In this document: piece by piece, positions 1 through 29,853 of the stretch | Position numbering within the stretch: the stretch's first letter is position 1 | How the letters are laid out: every line of letters begins with the position of its first letter | IMG/VR virus record: IMGVR_UViG_2529292720_000015 | Length of the DNA stretch: 38,578 nt | Reading direction: 5' to 3' (one strand) | Origin: a virus | Lineage: Duplodnaviria; Heunggongvirae; Uroviricota; Caudoviricetes | Made by a program: the position numbers and the translations under genes | The notes under the pieces: generated by a model | Databases searched by the model: none | The model's input: only the letters and a program-made list of their open reading frames with translations | What the model was told of the DNA's origin: nothing

Positions 1-138
1 GAGCGCGGCCGCTTCGCCTGGCCGTCAGCCCGGGATGGCAAAGTGTTCCTCACACCGGCACAGCTGGCGATGCTCCTTGAAGGTATCGACTGGCGGCAGC
101 CTAAAAGACTGCTTACGTCCCTGACTATGTTGTAAGCC
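1..138 (+). CDS. tnpB: IS66-family accessory protein TnpB (C-terminal fragment, 5' end outside window)
   Basis: Frame 1 translates to ...[41 protein letters not shown], which matches the conserved C-terminus of IS66 Orf2/TnpB proteins from memory. It lies 45 bp upstream of the transposase gene. Confidence 0.7.
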
Positions 139-183
139 TCTTTATCCTGGTCGACGCTGAATGAGCCTGGTAATATACCCGGT

Positions 184-1722
184 ATGAGCAGCTCACTTCC
201 TGACGGTATCAATGCGCTGAAACGTCTCCTTGCCGAACAGGAGGCGCTGAACCGTGCCCTGCTGGAAAAGCTGAACGAGCGTGAACGCGAAATAGACCAT
301 CTGCAGGCACAGCTGGATAAGCTGCGCCGGATGAACTTCGGCAGCCGCTCCGAAAAAGTCTCCCGTCGTATCGCACAGATGGAAGCTGACCTGAAGGCAC
401 TTCAGAAAGAAAGTGATACCCTTACCGGTCGGGTTGACGACCCGGCCGTGCAGCGCCCGCTGCGTCAAACCCGCACCCGCAAACCGTTCCCCGAATCACT
501 CCCCCGCGATGAAAAACGGCTGCTGCCGGCAGCGTCATGCTGCCCGGAATGTGGAGGCTCACTGAGCTATCTGGGTGAGGATGCCGCCGAACAGCTGGAG
601 TTGATGCGCAGCGTCTTCCGGGTTATCCGGACTGTACGTGAAAAGCATGCCTGTACTCAGTGCGATGCCATCGTGCAGGCCCCCGCGCCTTCACGGCCCA
701 TCGAGCGGGGTATCGCAGGACCGGGGCTGCTGGCCCGCGTGCTGATCTCAAAGTATGCAGAGCACACCCCGCTGTACCGCCAGTCTGAAATGTACGGCCG
801 CCAGGGCGTGGAGCTGAGTCGTTCACTGCTGTCGGGCTGGGTGGATGCATGCTGCCGGCTACTGTCACCGCTGGAAGAAGCGCTTCAGGACTATGTGCTG
901 ACTGACGGTAAGCTCCATGCTGATGACACGCCTGTCCCGGTGCTGTTGCCAGGCAATAAGAAAACGAAGACCGGGCGGTTATGGACCTACGTTCGTGACG
1001 ACCGTAACGCCGGGTCAACGCTGGCGCCGGCGGTGTGGTTCGCTTACAGCCCGGACAGAAAAGGCATCCATCCGCAGACCCATCTTGCGGGGTTCAGTGG
1101 TGTACTGCAGGCGGATGCATACGCCGGGTTCAACGAGCTGTACCGGGATGGCCGGATAACGGAAGCCGCCTGTTGGGCTCACGCCCGCCGTAAAATCCAC
1201 GATGTGCACGTTCGCACCCCGTCAGCCCTGACGGAGGAAGCGCTGAAACGGATCGGCGAACTGTACGCCATCGAGGCAGAGATAAGGGGAATGACGGCGG
1301 AGCAGCGCCTTGCCGAACGTCAGTTGAAAACGAAACCGCTGCTGAAATCCCTGGAAAGCTGGCTGCGTGAAAAGATGAAAACCCTGTCGCGACACTCAGA
1401 ACTGGCGAAAGCGTTCGCATACGCCCTGAACCAGTGGCCGGCGCTGACGTACTATGCAGATGATGGCTGGGCTGAGGCGGACAATAACATCGCTGAAAAT
1501 GCGTTGCGGATGGTCAGTCTGGGCCGCAAAAACTACCTGTTCTTCGGTTCGGATCATGGAGGAGAGCGGGGAGCGCTGCTGTACAGCCTGATCGGGACGT
1601 GCAAACTGAACGGAGTGGAGCCAGAAAGCTACCTCCGCTATGTCCTTGACGTCATAGCCGACTGGCCGATAAACCGGGTCGGCGAACTGCTCCCCTGGCG
1701 CGTAGCACTGCCGACTGAATAA
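184..1722 (+). CDS. tnpC: IS66-family transposase (TnpC)
   Basis: 512-aa ORF with an N-terminal coiled-coil/leucine-zipper region, a Cys-rich CPECGG...CTQCD zinc-finger-like segment and a long catalytic region, typical of IS66 TnpC. Position after the TnpB-like fragment fits. Confidence 0.9.
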
Positions 1723-1738
1723 CACATCCCCGTCAATA

Positions 1739-1759
1739 CGGTTCTTGCTGCACGCTTAC
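1739..1759 (-). repeat. putative IS66 right terminal inverted repeat
   Basis: Reverse complement reads GTAAGCGTGCAGCAAGAACCG. The TAA inside GTAAGCG supplies the stop codon of the incoming minus-strand baseplate ORF. Confidence 0.5.
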
Positions 1760-2664
1760 GCATAAACAGGTACATCACTGGAACGCGAGAATTTGATTAC
1801 ATGGGGATTGCCGTATTTATCCGGAACCGTAACGGATGTTGTACCGTGAGTGGCTGTCCCCTGGCCTTTATTCCCTCTGATAGCCTGAGCAATATCCGTC
1901 ACATCACCGCCATCCACAATTACAGCAACAGAGTGTGGCGGTAACCCGTTACCGTCCTCCGAACCAGTATCGTTTTCATAGAGTTTGTGGCGGGTTACAC
2001 CGGTAACATTAGAAACAGCACCATCCAGTGCTTCAAATGGGGTTATTGATGGCAACGCAACACTTTGCGACTGGCGGATACGTAACTCAGCATCAGTTTC
2101 TGCCGGAGAGCCAACAGTAGCCGCAGCAGGATTAGTTACCGAAACCCAGCCACGGGTTGGCGTATTAATTTCAGTGATAGTTCCAGCCAGCGCCGCCACT
2201 GCACCACTGACGGAACATGTTGCGGTCGCCATCACTGTACCATCCACGCCGACCACCACTGAAGCAGGCAAACGCCATATCACATTATTACTGTCTTTCA
2301 CGCTGCCATTAATGATGGTTGTTCCGGCAGTTCCTGTAAGAAGCAAATCAACCGTAGAGTTCGTCGCGCCTTTACGTGAAATACCATTTATTTTCACGTT
2401 ACTGGTCAGTGCAGCCCCATAGCCGGTTGCCGGTGAAAAACAGTTGTAGACAGTTATCGCCATATTATTGGCATCATGAATCGCCAGCGCCATCAGAGCC
2501 ACCATCTGGCCGTCTTTGCTGTCCGGTTCGAGGTAGGCATCACTGCCATAAATCTGCTGAAAATAGCTAATCAGGGTGCTGAGTATCGTCTGATAATCAG
2601 GCGCACTGATCCCCTCCGCGGTTACCTTTGCAGATAAACCGAGAGAATCAAGGTTCAGAGCCAT
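1756..2664 (-). CDS. baseplate J-like protein (Mu gp47 / P2 gpJ-like), 3' end interrupted by the IS66 insertion
   Basis: 302-aa ORF, last in the minus-strand baseplate cluster. Its reading frame runs uninterrupted to the IS boundary and stops on the TAA within the IS terminal GTAAGCG. The family assignment is by position and composition only. Confidence 0.5.
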   Translation of the reverse strand: MALNLDSLGLSAKVTAEGISAPDYQTILSTLISYFQQIYGSDAYLEPDSKDGQMVALMALAIHDANNMAITVYNCFSPATGYGAALTSNVKINGISRKGATNSTVDLLLTGTAGTTIINGSVKDSNNVIWRLPASVVVGVDGTVMATATCSVSGAVAALAGTITEINTPTRGWVSVTNPAAATVGSPAETDAELRIRQSQSVALPSITPFEALDGAVSNVTGVTRHKLYENDTGSEDGNGLPPHSVAVIVDGGDVTDIAQAIRGNKGQGTATHGTTSVTVPDKYGNPHVIKFSRSSDVPVYA

Positions 2665-3017
2665 TACGCCTCCGATGTAACAGTCGTTATTCCATAGAGA
2701 GTGTCGATTTCAGCGGAAAACATGACACGTCGGGTCGTGGTATCCACCGTCGTATTGAAAGAGAGGATTGATTTAACGCCCTGCGTTTCGAGGATGCGCT
2801 TACGGATCGCCAGGTTGTAAGTTTCTGGTTTTTGCCTGCCCAGCACGGACTGGATCCACGGTGTTCCCTCTGTGGTATCAAGAAACCATTGCCCATACCA
2901 CAATTCGAATCGCGTTTTCACAGCCTGCGCTACGGCCTCAGGCGAGTTAATCAGCCAGGTGTCATCACCGCTGCCAAAGGTGTAATCGCCATCGGCGTCT
3001 TCACGTCTGTATCGCAT
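2664..3017 (-). CDS. baseplate protein (gpW/gp25-like position), putative
   Basis: 117-aa ORF with start/stop overlap to both neighbours in the baseplate cluster. Assigned by synteny only. Confidence 0.4.
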   Translation of the reverse strand: MRYRREDADGDYTFGSGDDTWLINSPEAVAQAVKTRFELWYGQWFLDTTEGTPWIQSVLGRQKPETYNLAIRKRILETQGVKSILSFNTTVDTTTRRVMFSAEIDTLYGITTVTSEA

Positions 3018-3769
3018 CAGTTTACCCCGTCGGTACTGCTTCCACCACGCTGAACACCACCATGAGTGTGTGTATCATCGATTGGCTTGCCATTAGCCTT
3101 CACGCTCCCCAAAAACTCAACAGCACCAGTGATTTTTGAAGCCACACCAGAAACCACAGACCCCACCATGCCCCCCATCCAGGTTAACAGGCCATGAATG
3201 GTTACTTTCTCAGAAAAATCAGCCAGAGGGGCAACCACATCAAGACCACCTGGAGCGACAATTTTAATTTTCCTGGTATCAGGATTAAGCTCAAAATAGG
3301 TGCTGCCGTCATCACTACGCAACTGTGTGGCACTGGTATTAATACCGCTAATCTTCCTTGCCTGCGACTGGGGACCGACAATACAAAACGCATCCGATAA
3401 ATCATGCATTCTGTCATCGACCGACTCCTGTATCCCGCCACTCTGCCACCAGAAATCAATACAACGATCGGCAAAAATCACCAAACATTCATCACCGGCT
3501 TTAACTGGGAACGTTAGCGTACATCCTCCGCCGCGCGGGAATACCACTGGCACATCCACCAGCAATGGGTAATTTTTGGTAATGCGGTTGCCGTCATTAT
3601 CCTTTTCAACCGAACGGATAGCAGGCTGCACAACTGCCGTCACCGCATCAGGATCGAATGACTGAATAATGCCAGGCAAGGCGACACGGATCTGGTTCTT
3701 TGTTGTTTCCCGCTCGGACTTGAATGTTTCGGCAAGGTCACCGCTACGAGTCTGGTCTGATATGGCCAT
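3017..3769 (-). CDS. baseplate assembly/spike protein (gpV-like), putative
   Basis: The ORF track gives 3017..3802, but that start is a TTG inside a terminator hairpin. The ATG at 3769..3767 is preceded by GGAG with 8-nt spacing, giving a 250-aa product beginning MAISDQ. Confidence 0.5.
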   Translation of the reverse strand: MAISDQTRSGDLAETFKSERETTKNQIRVALPGIIQSFDPDAVTAVVQPAIRSVEKDNDGNRITKNYPLLVDVPVVFPRGGGCTLTFPVKAGDECLVIFADRCIDFWWQSGGIQESVDDRMHDLSDAFCIVGPQSQARKISGINTSATQLRSDDGSTYFELNPDTRKIKIVAPGGLDVVAPLADFSEKVTIHGLLTWMGGMVGSVVSGVASKITGAVEFLGSVKANGKPIDDTHTHGGVQRGGSSTDGVN

Positions 3770-3782
3770 TTGATAAACTCCT

Positions 3783-3811
3783 GAAAACAAAAAACCCGCC
3801 AAGTGGCGGGT
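3783..3811 (-). terminator. intrinsic terminator downstream of the tail-module moron
   Basis: On the minus strand, a 7-bp stem (A-CCCGCC / GGCGGG-T) with a 4-nt loop is followed by TTTTTGTTTT. Confidence 0.6.
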
Positions 3812-3830
3812 CTACAGGAACAACTCTAAG

Positions 3831-4001
3831 TTTATTTTTTCTGTTTAAAATTGTCCAACTCAGGTTCTTTAACGCTTTCTGTCATGTAATCCAATCCATC
3901 AAAAGGTACTTCAAGCATTATACTGCTTTCATAATCAGCCATGGATTGCTCTGCTTGCGTTGGCTTACTTTGCTGTGAGTTGTCATTATTTGATGTTGTC
4001 A
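3831..4001 (-). CDS. small acidic hypothetical protein (56 aa), third gene of the tail-module moron
   Basis: ATG at 4001 sits 4 nt after the stop of the upstream membrane-protein gene. Product MTTSNNDNSQQSKPTQAEQSMADYESSIMLEVPFDGLDYMTESVKEPELDNFKQKK. It is below the ORF-track length cutoff and has only a weak SD. Confidence 0.35.
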
Positions 4002-4005
4002 TCAA

Positions 4006-4560
4006 CTATGCCTTATTTATCAAAAGAAAAGTAACCGATAATATGAAAAAACCGAAAGATAACGCAATTCCTTCAAAAAGATAACGAGCATAAACTGCCT
4101 TTTCTTTATGAAGACTTTCGATCAATTCAACAGCTTTACCATACTGAAACATATGGTATCTAAGCGTTTTAATTTTATCACCGTAAAGTAAAAAATCATG
4201 CTCTTCTTTTCGCTTATGAATAGGCATTTTTGGTATATCTTTCAGTCCCCAAGTACGCCATAGGAAAAAAAAGCACATAACAATACAAACAAAGCACAGA
4301 TATGCACAAAGTATAGATAATGTTAAAAACCAATTACTCTTTAGCCCACTTTTGAAATCAACAGTCCCAAATACAGCCAGTAGAGCAGAGGTTTCTACAG
4401 CTAAAATAGCAAGAAGGTAGTTAACTTTGTCCTCAAGACGACGATATGTTGATTTTGCTTCCTCATATCTATCTTTATAATATGACGAAATAAAATCAGC
4501 GCCTATAGTCTCAATTGCCTTTTGTTCTTCTGTTGTATCTATTGGCGAACGCTTGCTCAT
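4006..4560 (-). CDS. hypothetical inner-membrane protein (about 3 TM helices), moron
   Basis: 184-aa ORF in a low-GC segment. It has a hydrophilic N-terminal region of about 45 aa and three hydrophobic helices (LLAILAVETSALLAVFG, WFLTLSILCAYLCFVCIVMCFFFLW, IALSFGFFILSVTFLLI). Its start is 7 nt after the upstream stop. Confidence 0.6.
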   Translation of the reverse strand: MSKRSPIDTTEEQKAIETIGADFISSYYKDRYEEAKSTYRRLEDKVNYLLAILAVETSALLAVFGTVDFKSGLKSNWFLTLSILCAYLCFVCIVMCFFFLWRTWGLKDIPKMPIHKRKEEHDFLLYGDKIKTLRYHMFQYGKAVELIESLHKEKAVYARYLFEGIALSFGFFILSVTFLLINKA

Positions 4561-4567
4561 TTCTTAA

Positions 4568-4915
4568 TCAACCAACAACTTTCTTACACGGGAAAGAGCC
4601 AATAATTTTCGGAGCATCCATGCTGTTCTGCAACAACTGGACGTTCAGGAAACGCGTTTTAGTGCCCGGTCGATGGATATACTCGAACCCATAATTGTTG
4701 CCATCTTTGGCAGGCATCAGCTCCATTTTGATCTGCATGCCTGTACCGTCTTTACCCAACATTTTTACTTTTTGGGATGTTACTGTTTCGCCATTGATTT
4801 TAAATAATGAGTCAGGGATCGCATCCATACGAAAGTTGCCGCATTGCATCGTTATGGTGTTTGCACTTACACCAACAGACACTAACGCCAGCAATGAAAA
4901 TATCCATCGTTTCAT
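4568..4915 (-). CDS. hypothetical secreted/periplasmic protein with signal peptide, moron
   Basis: The ORF track gives 4568..4996. The likely start is the ATG at 4915 (MKRWIFSLLALVSVGVSA-NT..., a signal peptide with an AXA-like cleavage site), preceded by GAGG; the upstream gene's TAG stop lies 2 nt before it. There are two Cys in the mature part. Confidence 0.55.
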   Translation of the reverse strand: MKRWIFSLLALVSVGVSANTITMQCGNFRMDAIPDSLFKINGETVTSQKVKMLGKDGTGMQIKMELMPAKDGNNYGFEYIHRPGTKTRFLNVQLLQNSMDAPKIIGSFPCKKVVG

Positions 4916-4917
4916 TT

Positions 4918-5982
4918 CTATAATCCTCTCTGCAAAGCAGTGCTGGATGGCATATCCTGCGCACCGCGCGCTTCGCACATCATATCCATGTACCACGCCT
5001 GGCCCCTTGTGTCGCCAGTGTACATAATCCCGCGCACAATATAAACGCCATCCGTTGCGATGCTGGCAGGCTGCGATGTGGTGCCGCTTAGCGTGATATT
5101 TCCATCCGTGTTCTGGTCGGTGATCTGACCACCAGCCATCGCAATATCGTTGTTCGACAACGCGGTACGATACACTGAAGCCTGATCCAGCTGAATGAGT
5201 CCGTTAACCCAGATGTTCGGATTAATAAGCGCGCGGACGTTTACGCCGTTACCGATAGTCTGCTGCGGCATGCCAATAAGCCCGGTAGCGCTGTTGAGCA
5301 CAATCGCTTCATGAACATATTCGTTATTCGCCACCATCTGGCGCTGACCATCCACGAATTGCCATGTTGCGCCACATTGCCCGGCTACGTTATCCATTAG
5401 ATGCCGCGTCATGCCAAAGAGCACCCGCCCCCGGGGGAATACAGTAGCAGGCATTTCAGGCGTCAGGCCTTCGGTCGCACCTTTGGCTTCGAAGTCTTTC
5501 ATCAGCGCACGGTTCACATCAGCGACCGTGTAACCGGCAGCCAGCGTCTGTGAGGTTATACTGGTGGCAAAAGCCAGATCAGTATCTGCTGCCTGAATCA
5601 GGACGTAGGAATCAACCGGACTGTCTTTTCCTGTGACCGAGTAGCGAATTTCACCGCTGAAAATCAGTCCGTAGTTGCGGCCATCTCTCTGGCCCACGTC
5701 CGCCGCGTCAACTTCCCGCACGGTCCCTACGTCGCTTGCTGACACCTCCGGCGCGATACCGTCGTAACCGGCAATCAGACGCACTTTCGAAAATTCCTGC
5801 CCGGTGATTCGGTTCACAGTATCTGCCGAGAGGTTATAAATTTTGATAGTCCCTACCCGGGACGCGCTGCTGATGTTGAACCAGTCGATCGTAAAGGTGA
5901 CTTTGAAATCACTTAGCTCAATTCCCTGACCGTTCCCGTCCACAAGCTGCAGCTCGAAATGTCTCATCCAGTTCTGTGACAT
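4918..5982 (-). CDS. phage tail/baseplate protein (hub, Mu P / late control D-like), putative
   Basis: 354-aa ORF in the tail cluster downstream of the tape measure. Assigned by position and size. Confidence 0.45.
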   Translation of the reverse strand: MSQNWMRHFELQLVDGNGQGIELSDFKVTFTIDWFNISSASRVGTIKIYNLSADTVNRITGQEFSKVRLIAGYDGIAPEVSASDVGTVREVDAADVGQRDGRNYGLIFSGEIRYSVTGKDSPVDSYVLIQAADTDLAFATSITSQTLAAGYTVADVNRALMKDFEAKGATEGLTPEMPATVFPRGRVLFGMTRHLMDNVAGQCGATWQFVDGQRQMVANNEYVHEAIVLNSATGLIGMPQQTIGNGVNVRALINPNIWVNGLIQLDQASVYRTALSNNDIAMAGGQITDQNTDGNITLSGTTSQPASIATDGVYIVRGIMYTGDTRGQAWYMDMMCEARGAQDMPSSTALQRGL

Positions 5983-5984
5983 GC

Positions 5985-6287
5985 TTACTCCGTTGATACC
6001 AGTAAATGACTGAGGCCGCCCAGATCAGTTTTCGTGGGATAATCCTGTGTGTTGTCATCGCAGACCACCACCAGCTTAAAACCAAGTCCCATACAGGCGT
6101 ACTGCGCCAGCAGGTCAGCACCAGTGACGAGAGGAATACCGGAGATTACCGGCTCCCCTCTGTCGTTCTGCAGGTCCATAATCCAGTACAGATCGCGCCA
6201 TATGATGCTAATCCGCCAGGTAACACCACCCAGGACGATGCTGAACTGCTGGTTGTCCGCTGTCAGCGGAATTTCCTGAATTGTCAT
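5985..6287 (-). CDS. phage tail protein, hypothetical
   Basis: 100-aa ORF tightly packed in the tail operon. Confidence 0.4.
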   Translation of the reverse strand: MTIQEIPLTADNQQFSIVLGGVTWRISIIWRDLYWIMDLQNDRGEPVISGIPLVTGADLLAQYACMGLGFKLVVVCDDNTQDYPTKTDLGGLSHLLVSTE

Positions 6288-6874
6288 TAGCCGCCCCCCA
6301 GTAATGACGCCACGTTACCCGTGATGCTTTTCAGCAGTGAAGTATCTGGAGGCTTGGTGGTTTTGTTGCCGCTGTTCTGTACCGCCGACGTGCTGGCCCC
6401 TTCCTTCATGTTGGTTTTATCCGCGACGGTAATCTGCTGCGTCCGGGAGATAAGGACCTCCCTCAGGGTGAGGACGGCGGACAGGACGTTTTCGGTTGTC
6501 TTGTCCGTCGTCACTTCCAGCGCCCGGATCAACATGTTGCTGTACAGTCGTTTACCGGTTACCACATCGAAGGGGATACGGCTTTCCTGCAGATCCAGTA
6601 GCTCCTGATACGTCTGCTGAGGACTCAGGCCGAGCAGGCTGGTAGCCGTCAGATTACTGGCAAAATCCAGCAATGCGCCGCCACCGGCGAAACCAACCTC
6701 CATCACCACTTCTGACGGTTTTTTATAGGCATGATCAGCGACAGCGGCCCCAACCTCTACCGGATGCTCTGTTATTTCAAGCATATCTGTATGCTTCTCT
6801 GAAATAACAACACTGGGAACAATCATTCCTATTTTTCTGCTCTGCTGATGAAAAAGTGTAGAGAGAATATCCAC
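6287..6874 (-). CDS. phage tail protein, hypothetical
   Basis: 195-aa ORF with start/stop overlap to the tape measure gene. Confidence 0.4.
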   Translation of the reverse strand: MDILSTLFHQQSRKIGMIVPSVVISEKHTDMLEITEHPVEVGAAVADHAYKKPSEVVMEVGFAGGGALLDFASNLTATSLLGLSPQQTYQELLDLQESRIPFDVVTGKRLYSNMLIRALEVTTDKTTENVLSAVLTLREVLISRTQQITVADKTNMKEGASTSAVQNSGNKTTKPPDTSLLKSITGNVASLLGGG

Positions 6875-8883
6875 TAACCCACCCTCACCTGATTACTTCG
6901 CATGACCTGAGCATTTGCAGACTGTTGCCGACGTGCAACCTCATTACCGACAGCGTGCGGATCTCCACCACCGTAAATGTGGTAGGTATTTTGCTGGTTA
7001 ACCTCTGTCATTTTGCCACTAATTCCCGCCACGGCAGCCTTATTAATCAGCTCTCGAGAATAGATATTTCTTCCATTCTCATGCTGGATAATGCTGCTCA
7101 TCAATGCTGACATGGTTTGCGGATCGCTCATATTCAGGGCAGCCCGGGGATCCACTCCCAGTCGTTGCGATACAGCCCTGATATACGCAGTTGTGTTGTT
7201 ATTATCAGACGCAGGTGCCCAAGTAGAGATAATTTTCTCCACACTGTTTATTCCCCGTCCGGCGTACAGCATTAACTGACGAGCAAGAGCCCGTAATCCA
7301 TCAAAAGCAGTTTCAAATCTGGCAAATCGCCCGCCCGGGCGTTCAAGAGAAGCCCCTGCCTGACCAGCAAAATTAAGGTTTCCCGGATTGTTATTCCGTT
7401 CTCCTCGTTTCGTAGCCTGTGCATATTGTTCCGGCTCATCATCACCAAACCAGCCGCGTACCGTCCGGCCCACACTGCGGGGATCGAATCCCCAGTGCTC
7501 TTTAATCCAGTCGGCTGTACTGTTAGCGCTGTCTGTAACCATCGGCATCGCTGACGGATTTTCGCTGCCCTGATTAAGTATCTGTTTGCCGATGCTGACG
7601 GCATCAGCCCAGCGTCCATCTTTGATAGCGTTAAGCAGGTCGGCAATCATGTTCAGCATTTTGCTGAATTCGCCCATCTGGTCGATGAAGTTGCTGAAAT
7701 CCCACTTCAGGGACCATGATTTGGGGTCAATATTGAGTAGTTTCGCCAGCGCTTTCGCCAGATCGTTAACGGTCGTTTTAAGGTCACGAACCATCTTCAG
7801 CGCGGCATCGACCTCCGGTTTCCACTTGCCCCAGTCAATCAGGCTGTCGCCGCCTTCCTTCCAGGTCTGATAGTCCTCCCACAGGAGGGCAATCCCCGCC
7901 GCCAGCGCGGTAATGAGGCCAACCGGCGACATCCAGAACGTACTGTTCAGAATGCGCAGCGCAATCGTCAGTGCGCCAAACAGCGAGATCAACTCCCGCG
8001 TTTGCTTATCCAGCGATTGCCACCAGGTGATAAGGCCTGATGTCCCCTCAATCAGTCTGAAGAACAGCCGCCCGATGATGTCTCCGATCGCCAGAATGCC
8101 TTTTATGGCTTTCGTCAGGGTCTGCTCGATACGAGGGAAGTTGTCCAGGATATGGCGGCGCAGGGTGTCTAGCGAACCCGCAAGCCCACCCGCAAGATTA
8201 GAGCCGATTTTGTCACGGGCCATGCCTGCCATCGCGCCGAACTCGCGCAGGGAGGTCATGAATTTGTTGGAGCTTCTGGCCGCCTCGTCAGCATTGAAGC
8301 CGATAGCTTTCGCCATTGCGCTGTACTGCCCGGAGAACCCCCCCACACCCCGGCGCATCGCCATAAGGGTATTTTCGTCAATGCCCAGCATCTGCGCATA
8401 CTGGTTAGCCCGGTAATACGGCATGCTGCTGAGCTTCTGGCCGACGCCCGTAAAGATAGCGGCCATGTCGCGCATGTTACCGCTGGCGTCACGGGTCTGT
8501 ACCCCCAGACGATTCAGAAATCCCTCCGCCCCGGGATTATTACGAATAAACCGGGAGAGGTTTTCCAGAGAAGATCGCGCAGCGTCCACGCTGCCGCCAA
8601 CCTGCGAAACCGCATAGCCAATAGACTGAATTCCCTGGACTGTCGCGCCGGTGCGCTGTGACGCCCAGTAAAGATTATCCAGACCGGAGGCGATCTTAGC
8701 CGTGAAGGCCACCACGGACAGCGCGGCTCCTTCAACGGCCAGCGCCATTTTGATGACATTTGCAGTTGTACCGGCGAGGACAGAACCGAACTTTTTCGCT
8801 CCTGCATCATCCACACTGAAGCCAAGCGAGACGAGGAAATCTTTAATAGTTTCAGCGTTCATTATCCTCTCTCCATTTCTCAA
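6874..8883 (-). CDS. tail tape measure protein
   Basis: 669-aa ORF, the longest in the tail module, Ala/Gly-rich with hydrophobic central segments, sited between tube/chaperone and baseplate genes. The true start may be the internal Met at MNAETIKDF (about 8862). Confidence 0.7.
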   Translation of the reverse strand: MRNGERIMNAETIKDFLVSLGFSVDDAGAKKFGSVLAGTTANVIKMALAVEGAALSVVAFTAKIASGLDNLYWASQRTGATVQGIQSIGYAVSQVGGSVDAARSSLENLSRFIRNNPGAEGFLNRLGVQTRDASGNMRDMAAIFTGVGQKLSSMPYYRANQYAQMLGIDENTLMAMRRGVGGFSGQYSAMAKAIGFNADEAARSSNKFMTSLREFGAMAGMARDKIGSNLAGGLAGSLDTLRRHILDNFPRIEQTLTKAIKGILAIGDIIGRLFFRLIEGTSGLITWWQSLDKQTRELISLFGALTIALRILNSTFWMSPVGLITALAAGIALLWEDYQTWKEGGDSLIDWGKWKPEVDAALKMVRDLKTTVNDLAKALAKLLNIDPKSWSLKWDFSNFIDQMGEFSKMLNMIADLLNAIKDGRWADAVSIGKQILNQGSENPSAMPMVTDSANSTADWIKEHWGFDPRSVGRTVRGWFGDDEPEQYAQATKRGERNNNPGNLNFAGQAGASLERPGGRFARFETAFDGLRALARQLMLYAGRGINSVEKIISTWAPASDNNNTTAYIRAVSQRLGVDPRAALNMSDPQTMSALMSSIIQHENGRNIYSRELINKAAVAGISGKMTEVNQQNTYHIYGGGDPHAVGNEVARRQQSANAQVMRSNQVRVG

Positions 8884-9039
8884 TGCGCCGCTGGTTATCC
8901 GCTTTTACCGCCAGATGGTCATTCAAGAGAGCAATGTCGTACAAATCGACAGAGCCATCTTTCAGTGCTGTATAAGGAATTAACCCGGCGTCAACCGGAT
9001 TGAGAAGGTAGGACAGCCCGTCCGGCAGGCTGTTAAACG

Positions 9040-9492
9040 TCAGCCCTGTTGCAGGCTCTGTGTCGTGCTGGTAAGGGGGGTAGGCAAAAAATTTCCCAGT
9101 GAATCGGCGACCCCCCGCGCCACCAGCTGCAGCATGGTTAGCAGGTCGATATCATCGAACATCAGCTGACCGCTGTTGAATACCGGCGTCCATCCGTCCA
9201 TGTGCTTACGTGATACTACGGCCAGGCAAGGATGAATAATCGCGTTGGTATCTTCTTCAGTCAGGGAAGACAGTTCCTCAGCGATACGCGGGAGCATGGT
9301 TTCAAACACCGGTTTTAACTGCTCGAATTTCACGGTGTCGATTTTGCCATCAGCAGGCAAACGGGAGCGAATGCTCCCGAAATCTGACATCATTCCTGCC
9401 AGCACCGGCAGAAGTTTGCGGGTCACTTTCAGCTGGTCAAAAACGCTGAGTTTTGCCACGCGATATTTCACGCCTTTGATTTCGAATTCCAT
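9040..9492 (-). CDS. tail assembly chaperone, putative
   Basis: 150-aa ORF immediately upstream of the tape measure gene. Assigned by synteny. Confidence 0.4.
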   Translation of the reverse strand: MEFEIKGVKYRVAKLSVFDQLKVTRKLLPVLAGMMSDFGSIRSRLPADGKIDTVKFEQLKPVFETMLPRIAEELSSLTEEDTNAIIHPCLAVVSRKHMDGWTPVFNSGQLMFDDIDLLTMLQLVARGVADSLGNFLPTPLTSTTQSLQQG

Positions 9493-9495
9493 GTA

Positions 9496-9936
9496 TTAAA
9501 ACTCCCCGAGAACCTGGTCAATCTTGCCGCAGTCAAACACCCACGGCATCGTATTACCGGTTTTAGCGTTGGCGTTATCCGGTTGTTTCTGGAACGCAAC
9601 ACTGCGTGCCGTGATGATGTCGCCGCTGACCTTGTTGCGGATCACGATAACGTTATTCCCCCATGTGGCAGAAGACTGGCTCTGTGCGTTATACGCCAGC
9701 GACAATTTTTTATTTGTCGGTGATGTCTTCAGAAGGTTAACGGTAATCGTCCCGCTTTTATCTGCATGGAGGCTGTGCATCACTTCGCCATCAGCACCGA
9801 TGGTCATGGTGTTTTTAGGACCGCCCATCGCAACCACAATCCCCTCCTCAGAACTTGCCGAACCGTACCCGAGGTCAATCGAACCGGTCGGCCCGGTCAG
9901 CGTCGCAGTGACATCCATAAAAGAATAGGTAGACAT
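9496..9936 (-). CDS. tail tube protein, putative
   Basis: 146-aa ORF directly downstream of the putative sheath gene. Assigned by synteny. Confidence 0.5.
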   Translation of the reverse strand: MSTYSFMDVTATLTGPTGSIDLGYGSASSEEGIVVAMGGPKNTMTIGADGEVMHSLHADKSGTITVNLLKTSPTNKKLSLAYNAQSQSSATWGNNVIVIRNKVSGDIITARSVAFQKQPDNANAKTGNTMPWVFDCGKIDQVLGEF

Positions 9937-9946
9937 TCACTTCCCC

Positions 9947-11092
9947 TTAGCGAACAACGTTAATCTGTACGTCAGCGTAATGAACCGCGCCTGCAAGTTT
10001 TATTGCAGCCTGAATCACCGGAGCCTTACGGGCTTCACGTTCTGATTGTGCCTGTTCATCCAGCGGCTGGGCGTATACGTAATAACCTTTGGGCAGCGTG
10101 TCACCTGATGACAACTGCCCAAGGTCGCCACCGTTCCATACGCCCGGAGCAATCAGTCCATTCTGAACGGCCTGATCCAGTGATTTTTCTACATTTGATA
10201 ACAGTCGGGTAATACCGGTTTCAGTCTGGGGAACCTTCGTGGTGCTGGTATAAAGCAGGTTATAGAGGTTGGTCTGCACATAATTCTGTAACCAGTCCAG
10301 GCCGTGGCGTTCATCAAAGAAATCGCCGTTAGCCATCACTCCCTGCTGGAGGATAGCTGTATCATTCTGGTAGTACACGAACACATTGCAGTTTTTTGCA
10401 TCAAGTGCCGATGCCTGGCTGACTGTCAGTGTTTCATACCCGACACCCGGCTCCTGCTTAAACTTGAGCGTAATCGCGGTATTACTGCCATTGAAATTAA
10501 CCGTGAATGCCCGGCCAAATGCAGATAACGCAGCGTATTTATTACCCGATGAATACTGAATAAAACTGCGTGAATATCCGGCGGTTTTCAGTTTTGATGC
10601 CAAATCATCTCTGGATGCAGTCTGCAGGCATTTCTCATCGCTTGTCGTAATCGCCAGAATACGGCTTACAGAAGAGGATTCGATCGCCGCAGCCACTTTC
10701 AGCCAGTCTGCATCCGGAATATCTGCATCGTCTGCAATCCCCAGCCCATACCATGAAGTATAATCAAGCATGGCATTCACAGCCTGCTCCAGCGTCTCAG
10801 GCGTGGCCTGTTCGCTGTCTCCCTTCGTTTTCACCCAACGACCAACAAAAACCTCCTGAGGTTTCGGTGATTGTGAGAAAAACACCTGCGCAGCTTTATA
10901 TTCTGGTGATTCCACGCCAAAATCTTTTCCAATATCTTCCGCGGCAGAATAACGACGAATGCGCTCACTTACCGGAATGATTGTGGACGGGCCGAGAATG
11001 AGTAATGCACCAAAATTTCGCCCTGATGCTGCACGCGGCGACATGATCACATCAACATTAACAACGTTTGATACAGGCAAGCCCTGTGCCAT
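9947..11092 (-). CDS. tail sheath protein, putative
   Basis: 381-aa ORF followed by the tube gene, the usual order in a contractile tail. Assigned by synteny. Confidence 0.5.
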
Positions 11093-11095
11093 AGC

Positions 11096-11662
11096 TTAAT
11101 CTCCGAAAAAGATGACTGGTGCTTCCACCAGCGATTTAATACCGTACTCGCGCACAACCTTCCGGCGCAGGCGTACCGTCATATCGTAGCGGCGGACCCA
11201 TTGCTGATTAATAAGTTCAGGGAAGGGAGTCAGACCTGTGTAATCGCCAAGAGACAGCCCCAGCGCATTCAGTGCTGCATTGTTCTGCGGCACAGATATA
11301 CCGTCACGAAACCGGGACGCATACACCATCCCCGCCGGTCCATAAAACGAAGCCATACACTCAATCGTTTCATGCCGCCAGAGCTGAGAGCCATCATCGG
11401 TCTGTCTGGTGAATGCCGGACTGTCATCACCTGACCATCCGATAACCCCAAACGCACACCAGTTCGTTTCAACCGGTAGCAGTGGCGGCTGCTCTTTCTG
11501 CCAGCGCGGGCGAACCATCCCGGCAGACAGACCGGAAACGTTACGCATCCACTGGCTTAACAGCCTGTCGAGCGCTTCGTCATAATCCGGATCGCCACTG
11601 GTTGGTATTAACCATCCGCGCTCTGTACTGGTGTTATTGCTCAACCGGAGTTCCCCCATCAA
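11096..11662 (-). CDS. phage head-tail joining/structural protein, hypothetical
   Basis: 188-aa ORF between the head and tail modules. Confidence 0.4.
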   Translation of the reverse strand: MMGELRLSNNTSTERGWLIPTSGDPDYDEALDRLLSQWMRNVSGLSAGMVRPRWQKEQPPLLPVETNWCAFGVIGWSGDDSPAFTRQTDDGSQLWRHETIECMASFYGPAGMVYASRFRDGISVPQNNAALNALGLSLGDYTGLTPFPELINQQWVRRYDMTVRLRRKVVREYGIKSLVEAPVIFFGD

Positions 11663-12023
11663 ACGGCATCAACTCACAATGCGCCTGAACGAATCCGGCC
11701 CCATAAGCTGTATACGGGTCGACGAAGGTCACACGATAATCACGGCCCTGATACGTCACGATATCGGCATCACGGCCAGTCTGTCCCTGCGTCAGTCGCT
11801 CAGTCGTCACAATCAGAATTGCACCGCTGATTACCTGCCCTGCCTGCATACGGCGGTTTTCCAGAGAGCGATCAACAGTTACGACTCCGGCAAACTGCTT
11901 TTTAACTTCACTGTCGCTGCCGATCCCGTCCTCATCCACCGTTTGCACTCGGCGTGTTACCCACAAATTGAAGTCGCAAAAATCGGGGTCAAAAAGCACA
12001 TCTGTTACATCAAGAGTCGGCAT
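11634..12023 (-). CDS. phage head-tail joining protein, hypothetical
   Basis: 129-aa ORF, tightly packed in the structural operon. Confidence 0.4.
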   Translation of the reverse strand: MPTLDVTDVLFDPDFCDFNLWVTRRVQTVDEDGIGSDSEVKKQFAGVVTVDRSLENRRMQAGQVISGAILIVTTERLTQGQTGRDADIVTYQGRDYRVTFVDPYTAYGAGFVQAHCELMPFDGGTPVEQ

Positions 12024-12564
12024 CTTTATCCCTCACTACATGGGTAATAGCTCTGCGATATTGCCCGGTGTCAATTAATGGTTTCGCCAGATCGGTTCCG
12101 GGAGATTCGCCAGCAACACGCCGGGCAAGTTCCAGTGTTGCCCCCTTGCGCCCCCGACGAGCCCGGGCTTCAACAGTGCTGTCAGCAAGCGGCGTAAAGT
12201 CGGTAATAGTCATGTAACGCCTGACGCCATTAGCGGCCAGCGTTCCGGCACGGTTGAGTGCGCGTTCTGCTCCCGCAGCATTACCATCAAGAGCAGCCTG
12301 CGCCGCGGTTTTGAGCTGCGGCACCGTCTGCTCTTCTGCCGATTTAACGCCGGGGACCAGGTGAGGTCGTGGCGGGATGTTCTGCTCTGGTGAGCCGTAT
12401 TCGTTGAGGTAACCGATGCCCGCATTACCAAACGGAACATCATCCCGCTCGCTGTCTTCCGAAGGGATGCCGACCAGCACATCTTTTTTGGTTAACGACC
12501 TGAGCGCATCCAGAATGGCCTTAGCGTTATCCACCCTCGTTGTTACACCGCTTTTGAAACTCAT
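12010..12564 (-). CDS. phage structural protein, hypothetical
   Basis: 184-aa ORF in the structural operon. Confidence 0.4.
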
Positions 12565-12968
12565 AGCTGGCGACCGCCTGCACCGAACATCGTGATCAAC
12601 TGATAAAATTCAGCGCCATATCGGGTGTTATTCCAGAAACCTGCATCAGGATTCAGCGTCGCGCTGGTGTCATAGCTGACGCTTACCTTGTCAACGGACT
12701 TTGAGGACTGAACACCATTGGTTGAACCGCCCGGACCACCAGCCAGCATCGCTCTGCTGTCTGCCGCCCAGAGCGTCATGTAGTGCGCAACGAACAATCC
12801 GGCAAAGTACGGAAACAACTTTTTGCCGGTGACGTTTTCACTCAGCAGTTCATCGGCCAGATTCAGACGAAACTGGATTTGCGCTTCGGGATATTTGGCA
12901 GGGTCAGCAAACTGCGGGAAGTCGCGGCGAAAATCACTTACCGCTGGCAGACTTTGATTCTTTGGCAT
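12561..12968 (-). CDS. phage head completion/connector protein, hypothetical
   Basis: 135-aa ORF with a 4-nt overlap to its downstream neighbour. Confidence 0.4.
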
Positions 12969-22393: not shown

Positions 22394-22816
22394 TTATGCC
22401 GCCGAGCAGCTCCTACGCAAAGTCCTGATAGCCTGAGGCTTTGACTGAACCGACTGATCCATTTCGAGCACCACATCCAGCATGGCTAAGCAACCGTCAA
22501 TAAATCCCTCTGCCGCCTGAAGCCTCTTCAGAACGTGGGTGTGAGATACGCCGAGCTTCTCACCCATCGCCCTCACGGGCATGGCCTGGACGTAATGCCA
22601 CTCAAGGAGCGTGCACAGATACGGATCTTTTTTCTTCAAGCAGCTCATAGCGGAGTTGATGATAAGACCGTCATTGTCACTGCATTTCAGCCTTCCAGAC
22701 TGCGTCGCGGGTAGCAGATTCTTAAACCCGGCTGCAACAGGAGGAAAGTAGACGCTACCACCTTCACTCGCTGCCCAGCCACCCCAGCGCTCTAAAACCT
22801 GTTGAATATTACGCAT
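22394..22816 (-). CDS. Q: late-gene antitermination protein Q (Q82-type family)
   Basis: 140-aa ORF with Cys-rich and basic segments, upstream of the late leader region and lysis genes. Family assignment is from recalled similarity. Confidence 0.65.
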   Translation of the reverse strand: MRNIQQVLERWGGWAASEGGSVYFPPVAAGFKNLLPATQSGRLKCSDNDGLIINSAMSCLKKKDPYLCTLLEWHYVQAMPVRAMGEKLGVSHTHVLKRLQAAEGFIDGCLAMLDVVLEMDQSVQSKPQAIRTLRRSCSAA

Positions 22817-29252: not shown

Positions 29253-29696
29253 ATGAAACTGAAGCTGAACAATGTTCGTCTGGCCTTCCCGTCTCTGTTT
29301 GAAGCTAAAACTGTAAACGGCGAAGGCGATCCACGTTTCTCCGCAGTATTTTTAATGTCACCCAAACACCCACAACTGGAAGAAATCCGTAAAGCTATGA
29401 AGCAGGTAGCGAAGGAAAAATGGGGAGAGAAGTGGGAGCCCATTTATAACCAACTGGAGAAAAAACTCAATCTGTGCCTGCATGATGGTGATGAAAAAGC
29501 AGAGTATGAAGGCTTCCCCGGCAATTTCTTCCTGAATGCTGCTAACAAAGCGCGCCCAGCTGTTCTTGATCGCGATCGTTCGCCACTTATTCAGGCTGAT
29601 GGACGTCCCTATGCAGGGTGCTATGTAAACGCCGTTATCGATATCTGGGCACAGGACAATAATTTCGGTAAACGCATTAATGCCTCACTCGGCTGA
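29253..29696 (+). CDS. DUF2815-family protein (SSB-like), apparently C-terminally truncated by an in-frame TGA
   Basis: The N-terminus MKLKLNNVRLAFPSLFEAK is typical of DUF2815. After the TGA at 29694-29696 the frame continues for 34 codons (VQFLRDGDAFAVGGVASADDFDDISEGADAEALI) to a TAA at 29799. Confidence 0.75.
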   Translation: MKLKLNNVRLAFPSLFEAKTVNGEGDPRFSAVFLMSPKHPQLEEIRKAMKQVAKEKWGEKWEPIYNQLEKKLNLCLHDGDEKAEYEGFPGNFFLNAANKARPAVLDRDRSPLIQADGRPYAGCYVNAVIDIWAQDNNFGKRINASLG

Positions 29697-29853
29697 GTCC
29701 AGTTCCTGCGAGACGGCGATGCATTCGCTGTCGGCGGAGTGGCAAGCGCTGACGATTTCGACGATATCAGCGAAGGTGCTGATGCTGAAGCACTGATTTA
29801 ACCCTACTTCATAGACGCCCGGTTAAATACCGGGCTGCTGATTAGGCGCATAA

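Follow-up and report, generated by a model that had tools for sequence, protein, structure and literature searches.

An ISEc22 Insertion in the Baseplate Wedge Gene of a SEN34-Type Escherichia coli Prophage, with a Plausible Block in Tail Assembly

An ISEc22 Element at the Start of the Window

The window, i.e., the whole stretch of DNA analyzed here (38,578 nucleotides of a Caudoviricetes record, IMGVR_UViG_2529292720_000015), begins with the right-hand 1759 bp of an insertion sequence (positions 1–1759, plus strand), which correspond to positions 683–2441 of ISEc22, a member of the IS66 family; the left side is cut by the contig end. This part contains the last 44 codons and the stop of tnpB (1–135, plus strand), encoding the IS66 Orf2 accessory protein (PF05717 TnpB_IS66, E = 2.2e-8, profile 65–100 of 101), followed by an intact tnpC (184–1722, plus strand). 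The 512-aa tnpC product is an IS66-family DDE transposase (PF03050, E = 1e-106) that also matches PF13817 (IS66 C-terminal element), PF13007 (LZ_Tnp_IS66), and PF13005 (zf-IS66) in Pfam. The full tnpB (115 aa) and tnpA (126 aa, PF01527) are found upstream of tnpC and in the same orientation on an overlapping companion contig (L024) and on sister contigs. All of these IS genes are convergent to the phage late operon.

The right terminal inverted repeat, read directly from the window (1738–1759, minus strand), is GTAAGCGTGCAGCAAGAACCGT in the outward-in direction, so that the IS ends at position 1759 with ...CACGCTTAC and phage DNA follows from position 1760. The left repeat of ISEc22, GTAAGCGTACAGCCTGAACCGT, agrees with the right one at 19 of 22 positions; the two repeats are thus imperfect, and both begin with 5'-GTAAGCG. 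The whole element is 2441 bp long, its length and ends having been measured on copies in RefSeq genomes. In its tnpA-tnpB-tnpC order, its GTAAGCG... terminal inverted repeats, and its 8-bp target duplication, the window element is as expected of ISEc22, and nothing in it differs from the annotated ISEc22-family copies; only the insertion site is particular. Over its 1759 bp, the window portion is 100% identical to ISEc22 copies on ETEC plasmids (e.g., CP023350.1), including those of ETEC-2264 and the LR88297x plasmids. The transposase of the identical ETEC-2264 plasmid copy is WP_000099207.1, annotated in RefSeq as “IS66-like element ISEc22 family transposase.”

The Truncated Baseplate J Gene

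Adjoining the IS is a truncated gene (1756–2664, minus strand, from the list of open reading frames) for a baseplate J/gp47 wedge protein, of which codons 1–302 of 399 remain (PF04865, E = 3.7e-13, profile 4–159 of 255). As the initial annotation had described on recognizing an IS66-family element here, this reading frame stays open up to the terminal repeat and stops on the TAA (1758–1756) that the terminal GTAAGCG of the IS supplies. Because codon 302, which spans the junction (GC|G), still encodes Ala, the product contains no IS-encoded residues, and it is identical at 302 of 302 positions to residues 1–302 of the 399-aa protein WP_001197068.1. The interruption that had been proposed is therefore located at codon 302 of 399, and intact homologs end at 399 aa rather than 302.

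Both the 302-aa product and the intact protein score well above the gathering cut-off of PF04865 (49.8 and 55.7 bits respectively, vs. 21.1). In the intact protein the domain (profile 4–252) extends over residues 85–342, so that the cut falls inside it, and the truncated product is missing the final 40 residues of the Baseplate_J domain along with the C-terminal 57 aa. The first in-frame start in the C-terminal remnant is Met335, which would give a reading frame of at most 68 aa. Immediately upstream, in the same late operon, is an intact gp25-like sheath initiator gene (2664–3017, minus strand; PF10934 Sheath_initiator) that is identical to the ETEC-2264 copy and whose stop overlaps the baseplate J start codon. 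In two uninterrupted loci (L001 and L002) the gene order is sheath initiator, baseplate J, wedge partner (DUF2612), and tail fiber; in the window prophage the IS splits this same order.

Homologs of the wedge protein are nearly all 399 aa long among the best 120 clusters, and most of the shorter ones are partial or are fragments at contig ends. By tblastn, SEN34, Mulock, yong1, and Magia all cover residues 1–397 of 399, at identities as low as 49%, and the lost 97 aa are conserved in every full-length homolog down to that level. The protein is also homologous to components of solved baseplates, namely gp88 of 9zd7 (E = 1e-31), wedge protein 2 of 9ndy (E = 1e-24), gp16 of 7kh1 (E = 1e-16), Pam3 gp22 (E = 5e-8), and E217 gp44 (E = 8e-7), and these solved wedge proteins align to the intact protein through residue 396. 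An AlphaFold2 model of the intact 399-aa protein, made for domain borders, came from a shallow alignment (83–99% identity) with a pLDDT of 47 and a pTM of 0.28, and was not used.

Junctions and Target-Site Duplication

Window coordinates are those of the draft contig AQDC01000082.1, whose end is the start of the window (the window is the reverse complement of the listed locus L005, a contig end). Identity to the uninterrupted ETEC-2264 gene (L001) starts exactly at position 1760, where the initial annotation had placed the IS boundary, and the first 8 bp of phage DNA (1760–1767, plus strand) are GCATAAAC, the right copy of a target-site duplication that is single-copy at positions 8001–8008 of L001. 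At least six independent contigs, which come from different assemblies and sequencing runs, have the same right junction; two further contigs (L009 and L012) were left out of this count, as they end at the same codon by chance and have native sequence (GCC) without an IS.

The left junction lies on AQDC01000084.1, another contig of the window's own assembly, which shares a perfect 82-bp overlap with AQDC01000082.1 inside the IS. In this contig and six sister contigs, i.e., seven with the left junction, GCATAAAC directly precedes the IS left end. The parts that had been predicted to exist to the left of the window, namely tnpA and the left repeat, the 8-bp duplication, the distal part of the baseplate gene, and the downstream tail-fiber genes, were thus all recovered on AQDC01000084.1 and its sister contigs. 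Beyond the left junction AQDC01000084.1 carries the gene remnant, DUF2612, the tail-fiber cassette, and pin; since it has these as well as the same 8-bp duplication, the event appears to be a simple insertion without deletion. The genes on the far side (DUF2612, the tail fiber, two tail-fiber assembly genes, and the pin invertase) are intact, and the left flank runs collinear with the corresponding 8 kb of ETEC-2264, as far as chromosomal genes, at 99.95% identity.

Relationship to SEN34

The prophage has the simple contractile tail module, similar to that of E217 and Pam3, of the SEN34-type prophages of Enterobacteriaceae, with which it shares the order sheath initiator, baseplate J, DUF2612, and fiber. 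Its structural module is 82% identical in nucleotide sequence to that of SEN34 over 62% of 24 kb, and in the baseplate J protein the identity to SEN34 is 83.6% across residues 1–397. The baseplate region is uninterrupted in SEN34, whereas the window gene is cut at codon 302, and the two also differ in the replication/regulation module (DNA polymerase A, DUF2800, an Enc34-type ssDNA-binding protein, and VapE). SEN34 is a mitomycin-inducible, plaque-forming myovirus (PMC5261728).

Four 97%-identical records, vB_EcoM-606R2, 689R2, 611R5, and 683R1, were considered as proof of virion formation and then dropped in favor of SEN34. The one record examined, vB_EcoM-606R2, appears to be an excised prophage region because it includes the host genes tadA, yfhB, and yfhH, and we found no paper on any of the four.

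Age and Distribution of the Insertion

Compared with the uninterrupted ETEC-2264 copy, the right 36.8 kb of the prophage is collinear and differs by nine SNPs and no indels. Sister-assembly sequence covers the first three of these nine SNPs, one of which is shared and two of which are private. A search of 5426 complete E. coli genomes, 349 of which contain the baseplate gene, did not find the junction in any of them, and the baseplate region is uninterrupted in 313 E. coli genomes (those covering at least 80% of the 1341-bp region). The junction was seen only in one batch of near-identical drafts and two sequencing runs; E. coli 2872800 and 2875000 are examples of strains that have the IS. Among the assemblies carrying the insertion, the site is occupied by the IS in all, and an empty-site contig was not seen. 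Judging from these comparisons, the insertion happened very recently and is limited to a single group of closely related strains.

Predicted Consequence for Tail Assembly

Loss-of-function mutants of T4 gene 6, P2 gene J, and Mu gene 47 leave baseplates, and hence tails, incomplete. The window gene belongs to the same protein family (PF04865). Those mutants are experimentally characterized amber or temperature-sensitive point mutants, whereas the window case is a natural IS insertion that keeps 76% of the protein and is known from sequence. Wedge proteins contain N-terminal helices and wing, trifurcation, and dimerization domains, the last of which connect adjacent wedges (PMC13433997). In phage E217, six triplexes, each made of two gp44 and one gp45, form a “nut” that holds the fibers (PMC10329688). 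By homology, the missing C-terminal part would be the portion of a gp6/gpJ-type wedge protein that links adjacent wedges into a ring.

A tail defect is strongly suggested because homologs, that of the plaque-forming SEN34 among them, keep their full length at identities as low as about 49%, and because the cut lies inside the Pfam domain. Together with the homology to essential wedge proteins, this makes it plausible that the insertion blocks tail building. As the reading frames of baseplate J and DUF2612 overlap in the intact locus, the translational coupling from the former to its wedge partner would also be broken. Contractile tails polymerize from a completed baseplate, so infectious tailed particles are not expected, and induction would result in DNA-filled heads and lysis without them.

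Consensus scans of the IS, for a promoter reading outward at its left end and for strong terminators on the strand of the late operon, gave nothing above shuffled expectation. The prophage encodes an intact Q antiterminator (22394–22816); with it, late transcription may continue across the IS, and DUF2612 and the fiber genes are possibly still expressed.

State of the Prophage and Alternative Explanations

The prophage is located between yfhH and yfhL. Compared with ETEC-2264, 47 of its 48 other ORFs are full length, the exception being an apparent nonsense change at 29694, G148* in the gene for the Enc34-type ssDNA-binding protein, which was found in this assembly only; the IS is the only lesion known to be common to the sister assemblies. 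Most probably, a resident ISEc22 transposed into the wedge gene of a SEN34-type prophage, a temperate myovirus that is otherwise intact, by simple insertion, with an 8-bp duplication and no loss, the element probably having been copied from the strain's own ETEC plasmid.

That the junction is an artefact, in which a draft assembly joined an IS repeat to phage sequence as a chimera, can practically be dismissed. The window does start at a contig end within a multi-copy IS, and the companion contig has an 802-bp fold-back artefact. However, this fold-back is located in the invertible fiber segment, away from the IS, neither the 8-bp duplication nor the 82-bp overlap contains a mismatch, and the right and left junctions recur identically in the six and seven contigs described above. 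It is also unlikely, at a real junction, that the insertion is tolerated and the particles are infectious, whether because the 302-aa fragment suffices, because a related prophage in the same genome provides the wedge protein, or because the IS is rarely and precisely excised. In principle the fragment might keep partial function, Q-antiterminated transcription could read through the IS, the wedge protein could be provided in trans (some E. coli genomes have up to three copies of the baseplate region), and the 8-bp direct repeats could mediate precise excision. As a rule, though, excision between 8-bp repeats is very rare, and the occupied site in all insertion assemblies argues against it, while the 97 lost residues, kept in every full-length homolog and including part of the Pfam domain, argue against a sufficient fragment.

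The initial annotation had viewed the element as the mark of a domesticated cryptic prophage that the host retains for its cargo (the repressor and accessory cassettes), a reading in which the IS hit would be part of long-term decay. A low-GC three-gene moron (extra non-phage cargo) does lie within the baseplate operon (3832–4915), with a weak PycTM match, the repressor is intact, and prophages commonly decay through IS hits in their genes, other ISEc22 copies being found in prophage tail and lambdoid genes. This reading nevertheless seems rather improbable to us and is not supported. The insertion is very recent and limited to one strain group: the prophage has hardly diverged from the uninterrupted copy, no difference separates the IS from its plasmid donors, and complete genomes lack the junction even where the gene is present. 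Moreover, beyond the one shared lesion, the genes for structure, lysis, replication, and integration otherwise have full-length ORFs. With repressor, Q, holin, endolysin, and terminase intact, the prophage should still kill its host on induction, which argues against domestication; the intact lysis and regulatory genes would leave the host unprotected from induction. Selection of the insertion in the ETEC clone, which would keep immunity, cargo, and lysis and lose spread to or killing of competing kin, or a reversible infectivity switch by precise excision across the 8-bp repeats, appears very unlikely. The event looks like a recent chance hop of an IS in one closely related strain group, not an adaptation.

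With transposition of a resident ISEc22 as the preferred explanation, the 302-aa “hypothetical protein” and the 68-aa “putative bacteriophage domain protein” of several draft ETEC genomes are the two halves of one ISEc22-split wedge gene, and the prophage can be marked as probably non-infectious in the IS-bearing clone. The insertion is real and is an ordinary event, with no new biology and little importance beyond annotation. It does offer a clean and datable case of how prophage decay begins, one IS hit with the rest intact, and the IS-bearing prophage and the isogenic uninterrupted copy in the complete ETEC-2264 genome might serve as a natural control for the wedge C-terminus in SEN34-type tails.

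Other Disruptions and Other ISEc22 Copies

In pathogenic E. coli, the IS629 insertions of the O157 Sakai prophages are a case of a resident IS disrupting a prophage morphogenesis gene. The resulting prophage has one defect, as in the window, but belongs to another type and was hit by an IS of another family. Our search for homologs of the C-terminal fragment also turned up an independent disruption of the same gene in P0002, with another junction near residue 314, and several frameshifted variants, which are separate from the window event.

Other ISEc22 copies lie in a prophage tail-fiber gene (L032), a P22-like tailspike/arc region (L004), and lambdoid genes (L028). A target-site preference was considered, as the first three duplications were alike (GCATAAAC, GCATCAAC, and GAATAACA), and was rejected when eight more copies gave unrelated sequences; the unrelated duplications include AGTAAGTA, AAATGACC, TCTTCTTT, CCTGCTTC, GTTTATTT, and GGATCAAG. 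Among about 10 other ISEc22 copies, two have no target duplication, one has a duplication of 9 bp, and eight have one of 8 bp, the same length as in the window.

An ISEc22 Element Interrupts the Baseplate J Gene

The first 1759 nt of the window (+ strand) are IS66-family DNA and represent the right part of ISEc22 (IS positions 683–2441), comprising the last 44 codons of tnpB (1–135, +; PF05717) and an intact DDE transposase of 512 aa (184–1722, +; PF03050, E = 1e-106, with zf-IS66, leucine-zipper, and IS66 C-terminal domains). Read directly from the sequence, the right end of the element (...CACGCTTAC) lies at 1759, and identity to the uninterrupted phage locus of Escherichia coli ETEC-2264 starts in the alignment exactly at 1760. 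Two other ISEc22 copies, each with an 8-bp target duplication, have the same terminal base, and the window's 1759 bp show no difference from the full 2441-bp copy on an ETEC-2264 plasmid. All IS66/ISEc22 features that can be examined in sequence (three genes, GTAAGCG inverted repeats, and an 8-bp duplication) are present. The initial annotation of an IS66-family element at the window start, and its placement of the boundary, are thus confirmed.

The interrupted ORF (2664–1756, −; Baseplate_J, PF04865, E = 3.7e-13) encodes 302 aa, all identical to residues 1–302 of the 399-aa WP_001197068.1 (302/302, 100%). As initially proposed, it stops on the TAA within the terminal GTAAGCG; because the codon split at the cut (GC/G) still encodes Ala, this is a clean C-terminal truncation without IS-derived residues. 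The suggested alignment to intact homologs gave 302 vs. 399 aa: almost all of the best 120 homolog clusters are 399 aa long, and most of the few that fall short are incomplete or cut off at a contig end. In tblastn searches, residues 1–397/399 aligned in phage genomes down to ~49% identity, among them SEN34, Klebsiella phage Mulock, Hafnia phage yong1, and Burkholderia phage Magia. The Pfam domain spans residues 85–342 of the intact protein, and in the truncated product the match ends at profile position 159 of 255. Alignment to solved wedge proteins extends through residue 396, and many positions within 303–399 are nearly invariant among the 30 homologs compared. The insertion target is a genuine baseplate J/gp47 wedge gene, now truncated.

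The same gene has been independently disrupted elsewhere in public data, as seen in homologs of its C-terminal remnant. In one (P0002), the protein continues into unrelated sequence near residue 314, suggestive of a different mobile-element junction; three others (P0021, P0038, and P0053) are frameshifted variants.

The Far Side of the Insertion

The reverse complement of the end of contig AQDC01000082.1 (GCA_000354455.1) matches window 1–12664, and contig and window coordinates coincide; the window thus starts at the contig end within the IS, and nothing lies to its left on that contig. We built the predicted left junction from the full 2441-bp ISEc22 copy of the ETEC-2264 plasmid. There, the first in-frame start of the gene remnant is Met335, giving a 68-aa ORF. 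GenBank lists exactly this protein for the strains that have the 302-aa one (among them E. coli 2872800 and 2875000), and the latter is on record in a number of draft E. coli assemblies. Contigs of seven assemblies contain the left junction (...GGGCATAAAC/GTAAGCGTACAG...), including AQDC01000084.1 from the window's own assembly, whose IS part (1–764) matches the plasmid copy at every position and shares 82 bp with that of the window (683–2441). Both sides of the IS carry the 8-bp duplication GCATAAAC. Past the remnant follow a DUF2612 gene (226 aa), a tail-fiber gene, two tail-fiber assembly genes, an alternative fiber C-terminus, and the pin invertase, and then chromosomal yfhH, yfhB, tadA, mltF, and purL, in a stretch collinear with ETEC-2264 (99.95% over 8 kb). 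Taken together, the two junctions, the duplication, and the collinear far side indicate simple transposition without deletion. The rest of the IS, the duplication, and the 3′ remainder of the gene, which the initial annotation would have sought left of the window, are all found on AQDC01000084.1, and the displacement of the gene's distal part and the tail-fiber genes beyond the IS is borne out on this and sister contigs.

Age, Source, and Significance of the Insertion

Window 1760–38578 is collinear with ETEC-2264; over these 36,819 bp the two differ by nine substitutions and by no indel. The sister assemblies can be compared at the first three of these nine positions; one (5676) is common to them and two are private to the window's assembly. 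Each of the eight differences other than 5676 either falls in a G/C run or is of the G>T or C>A type, a pattern suggestive of draft sequencing errors. Plasmid copies in ETEC-2264 and a sister genome, adjoining CS7 fimbrial genes, share 100% identity with the IS. None of 5426 complete E. coli genomes matched a query spanning the junction, although 349 of them contain the baseplate region. The near-zero divergence, the identical plasmid IS, and the absence of the junction from complete genomes indicate that the insertion arose recently within a single ETEC clone, most simply by a hop from the resident plasmid.

On that ETEC-2264 plasmid (CP023350.1), the identical ISEc22 (L014 1819–4259, coordinates of the plasmid locus) lies beside the CS7 fimbrial gene csvA without target duplication. 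A second, inverted copy (L014 4681–6759) is 0.4 kb away, and the two flank a GspE/PulE gene fragment, which points to past IS-mediated rearrangement on this virulence plasmid.

IS insertion in prophage morphogenesis genes is common, and several of the few other ISEc22 copies inspected lie in prophage tail-fiber, tailspike-region, or lambdoid genes. The insertion in baseplate J is correct and well delimited, but an ordinary finding, of only modest value as providing a naturally isogenic pair (ETEC-2264 vs. the IS-bearing clone) for testing the wedge C-terminus.

Predicted Effect on Tail Assembly and State of the Prophage

In baseplate structures, this family contributes two copies to each wedge "triplex" (PMC13433997; E217 gp44/gp45, PMC10329688). 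N-terminal helices are followed by wing, trifurcation, and dimerization domains, the last of which join neighboring wedges into a ring (PMC13433997). By inference, the 302-aa product would be unable to close this ring. In intact loci, the gene for the wedge partner DUF2612 overlaps the baseplate J stop codon, a coupling that is lost in the IS-bearing locus. The IS genes are convergent to the phage late operon, and a sequence scan found no outward promoter-like site at the IS left end. As the Q antiterminator is intact, downstream transcription may still pass through the IS, in which case the main predicted defect would be the truncated wedge protein itself. Among isolated phages, SEN34 has the closest structural module (82% nucleotide identity; wedge protein 83.6% identical); as it is a mitomycin-inducible, plaque-forming myovirus, the intact module would by analogy make working tails.

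The initial view of a domesticated cryptic prophage retained for its cargo is not supported, and the prophage is not a decayed element. Compared with ETEC-2264, 47 of the 48 other ORFs are full length, including head, tail, lysis, Q, repressor, replication, and integrase genes, and there is no sign of cargo selection. Since the lysis and regulatory genes are undamaged, induced cells should still die, and the insertion would offer the host no obvious protection.

The exception is an Enc34-type ssDNA-binding (DUF2815) gene of the replication module (29253–29801, +), in which a G>T difference from ETEC-2264 at 29694 introduces a premature stop (G148*). Records of the 147-aa product come from the window's assembly only; since the other private differences are located in G/C runs or belong to the G>T or C>A type, G148* may be a draft sequencing error instead of a second real lesion.

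Variable Regions and Related Records

Between the spike (3017–3769) and hub (4918–5982) genes lies a low-GC (33–40%) block (3832–4915, −) with three small ORFs of 56, 184, and 115 aa. Three related prophages (L002, L009, and L026) carry different small genes at this position, so the spot resembles a variable cargo hotspot within the baseplate operon. The membrane-like 184-aa ORF has a weak PADLOC match to PycTM (E = 9e-4) and no Pfam match.

On the companion contigs left of the IS (1294–2095 and 3993–4794 of L024, the AQDC01000084.1 locus; also L017–L023), the tail-fiber gene pairs an invariant N-terminus of 117 aa with either of two C-termini, gp53-like_C (229 aa) or Collar (291 aa), which the Pin invertase exchanges. 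Sister assemblies show both segment orientations, and the perfect 802-bp fold-back at the end of AQDC01000084.1 suggests that both were present in the sequenced culture; Pin would then still be active in IS-bearing strains. In the complete ETEC-2264 genome (L001/L013 4618–6915, outside the window), the fiber gene and gp53-like segment are annotated as shortened or as pseudogenes. Three single-base indels separate ETEC-2264 from the IS-bearing drafts across the 8-kb region holding the fiber genes; as the fiber ORFs are full length in the drafts, these may be homopolymer errors of the long-read assembly.

The GenBank "phage" vB_EcoM-606R2 (ON470579.1; L026 1–2254) opens with host genes tadA, yfhB, and yfhH, so it is apparently a prophage region flanked by chromosomal DNA and not a packaged phage genome.
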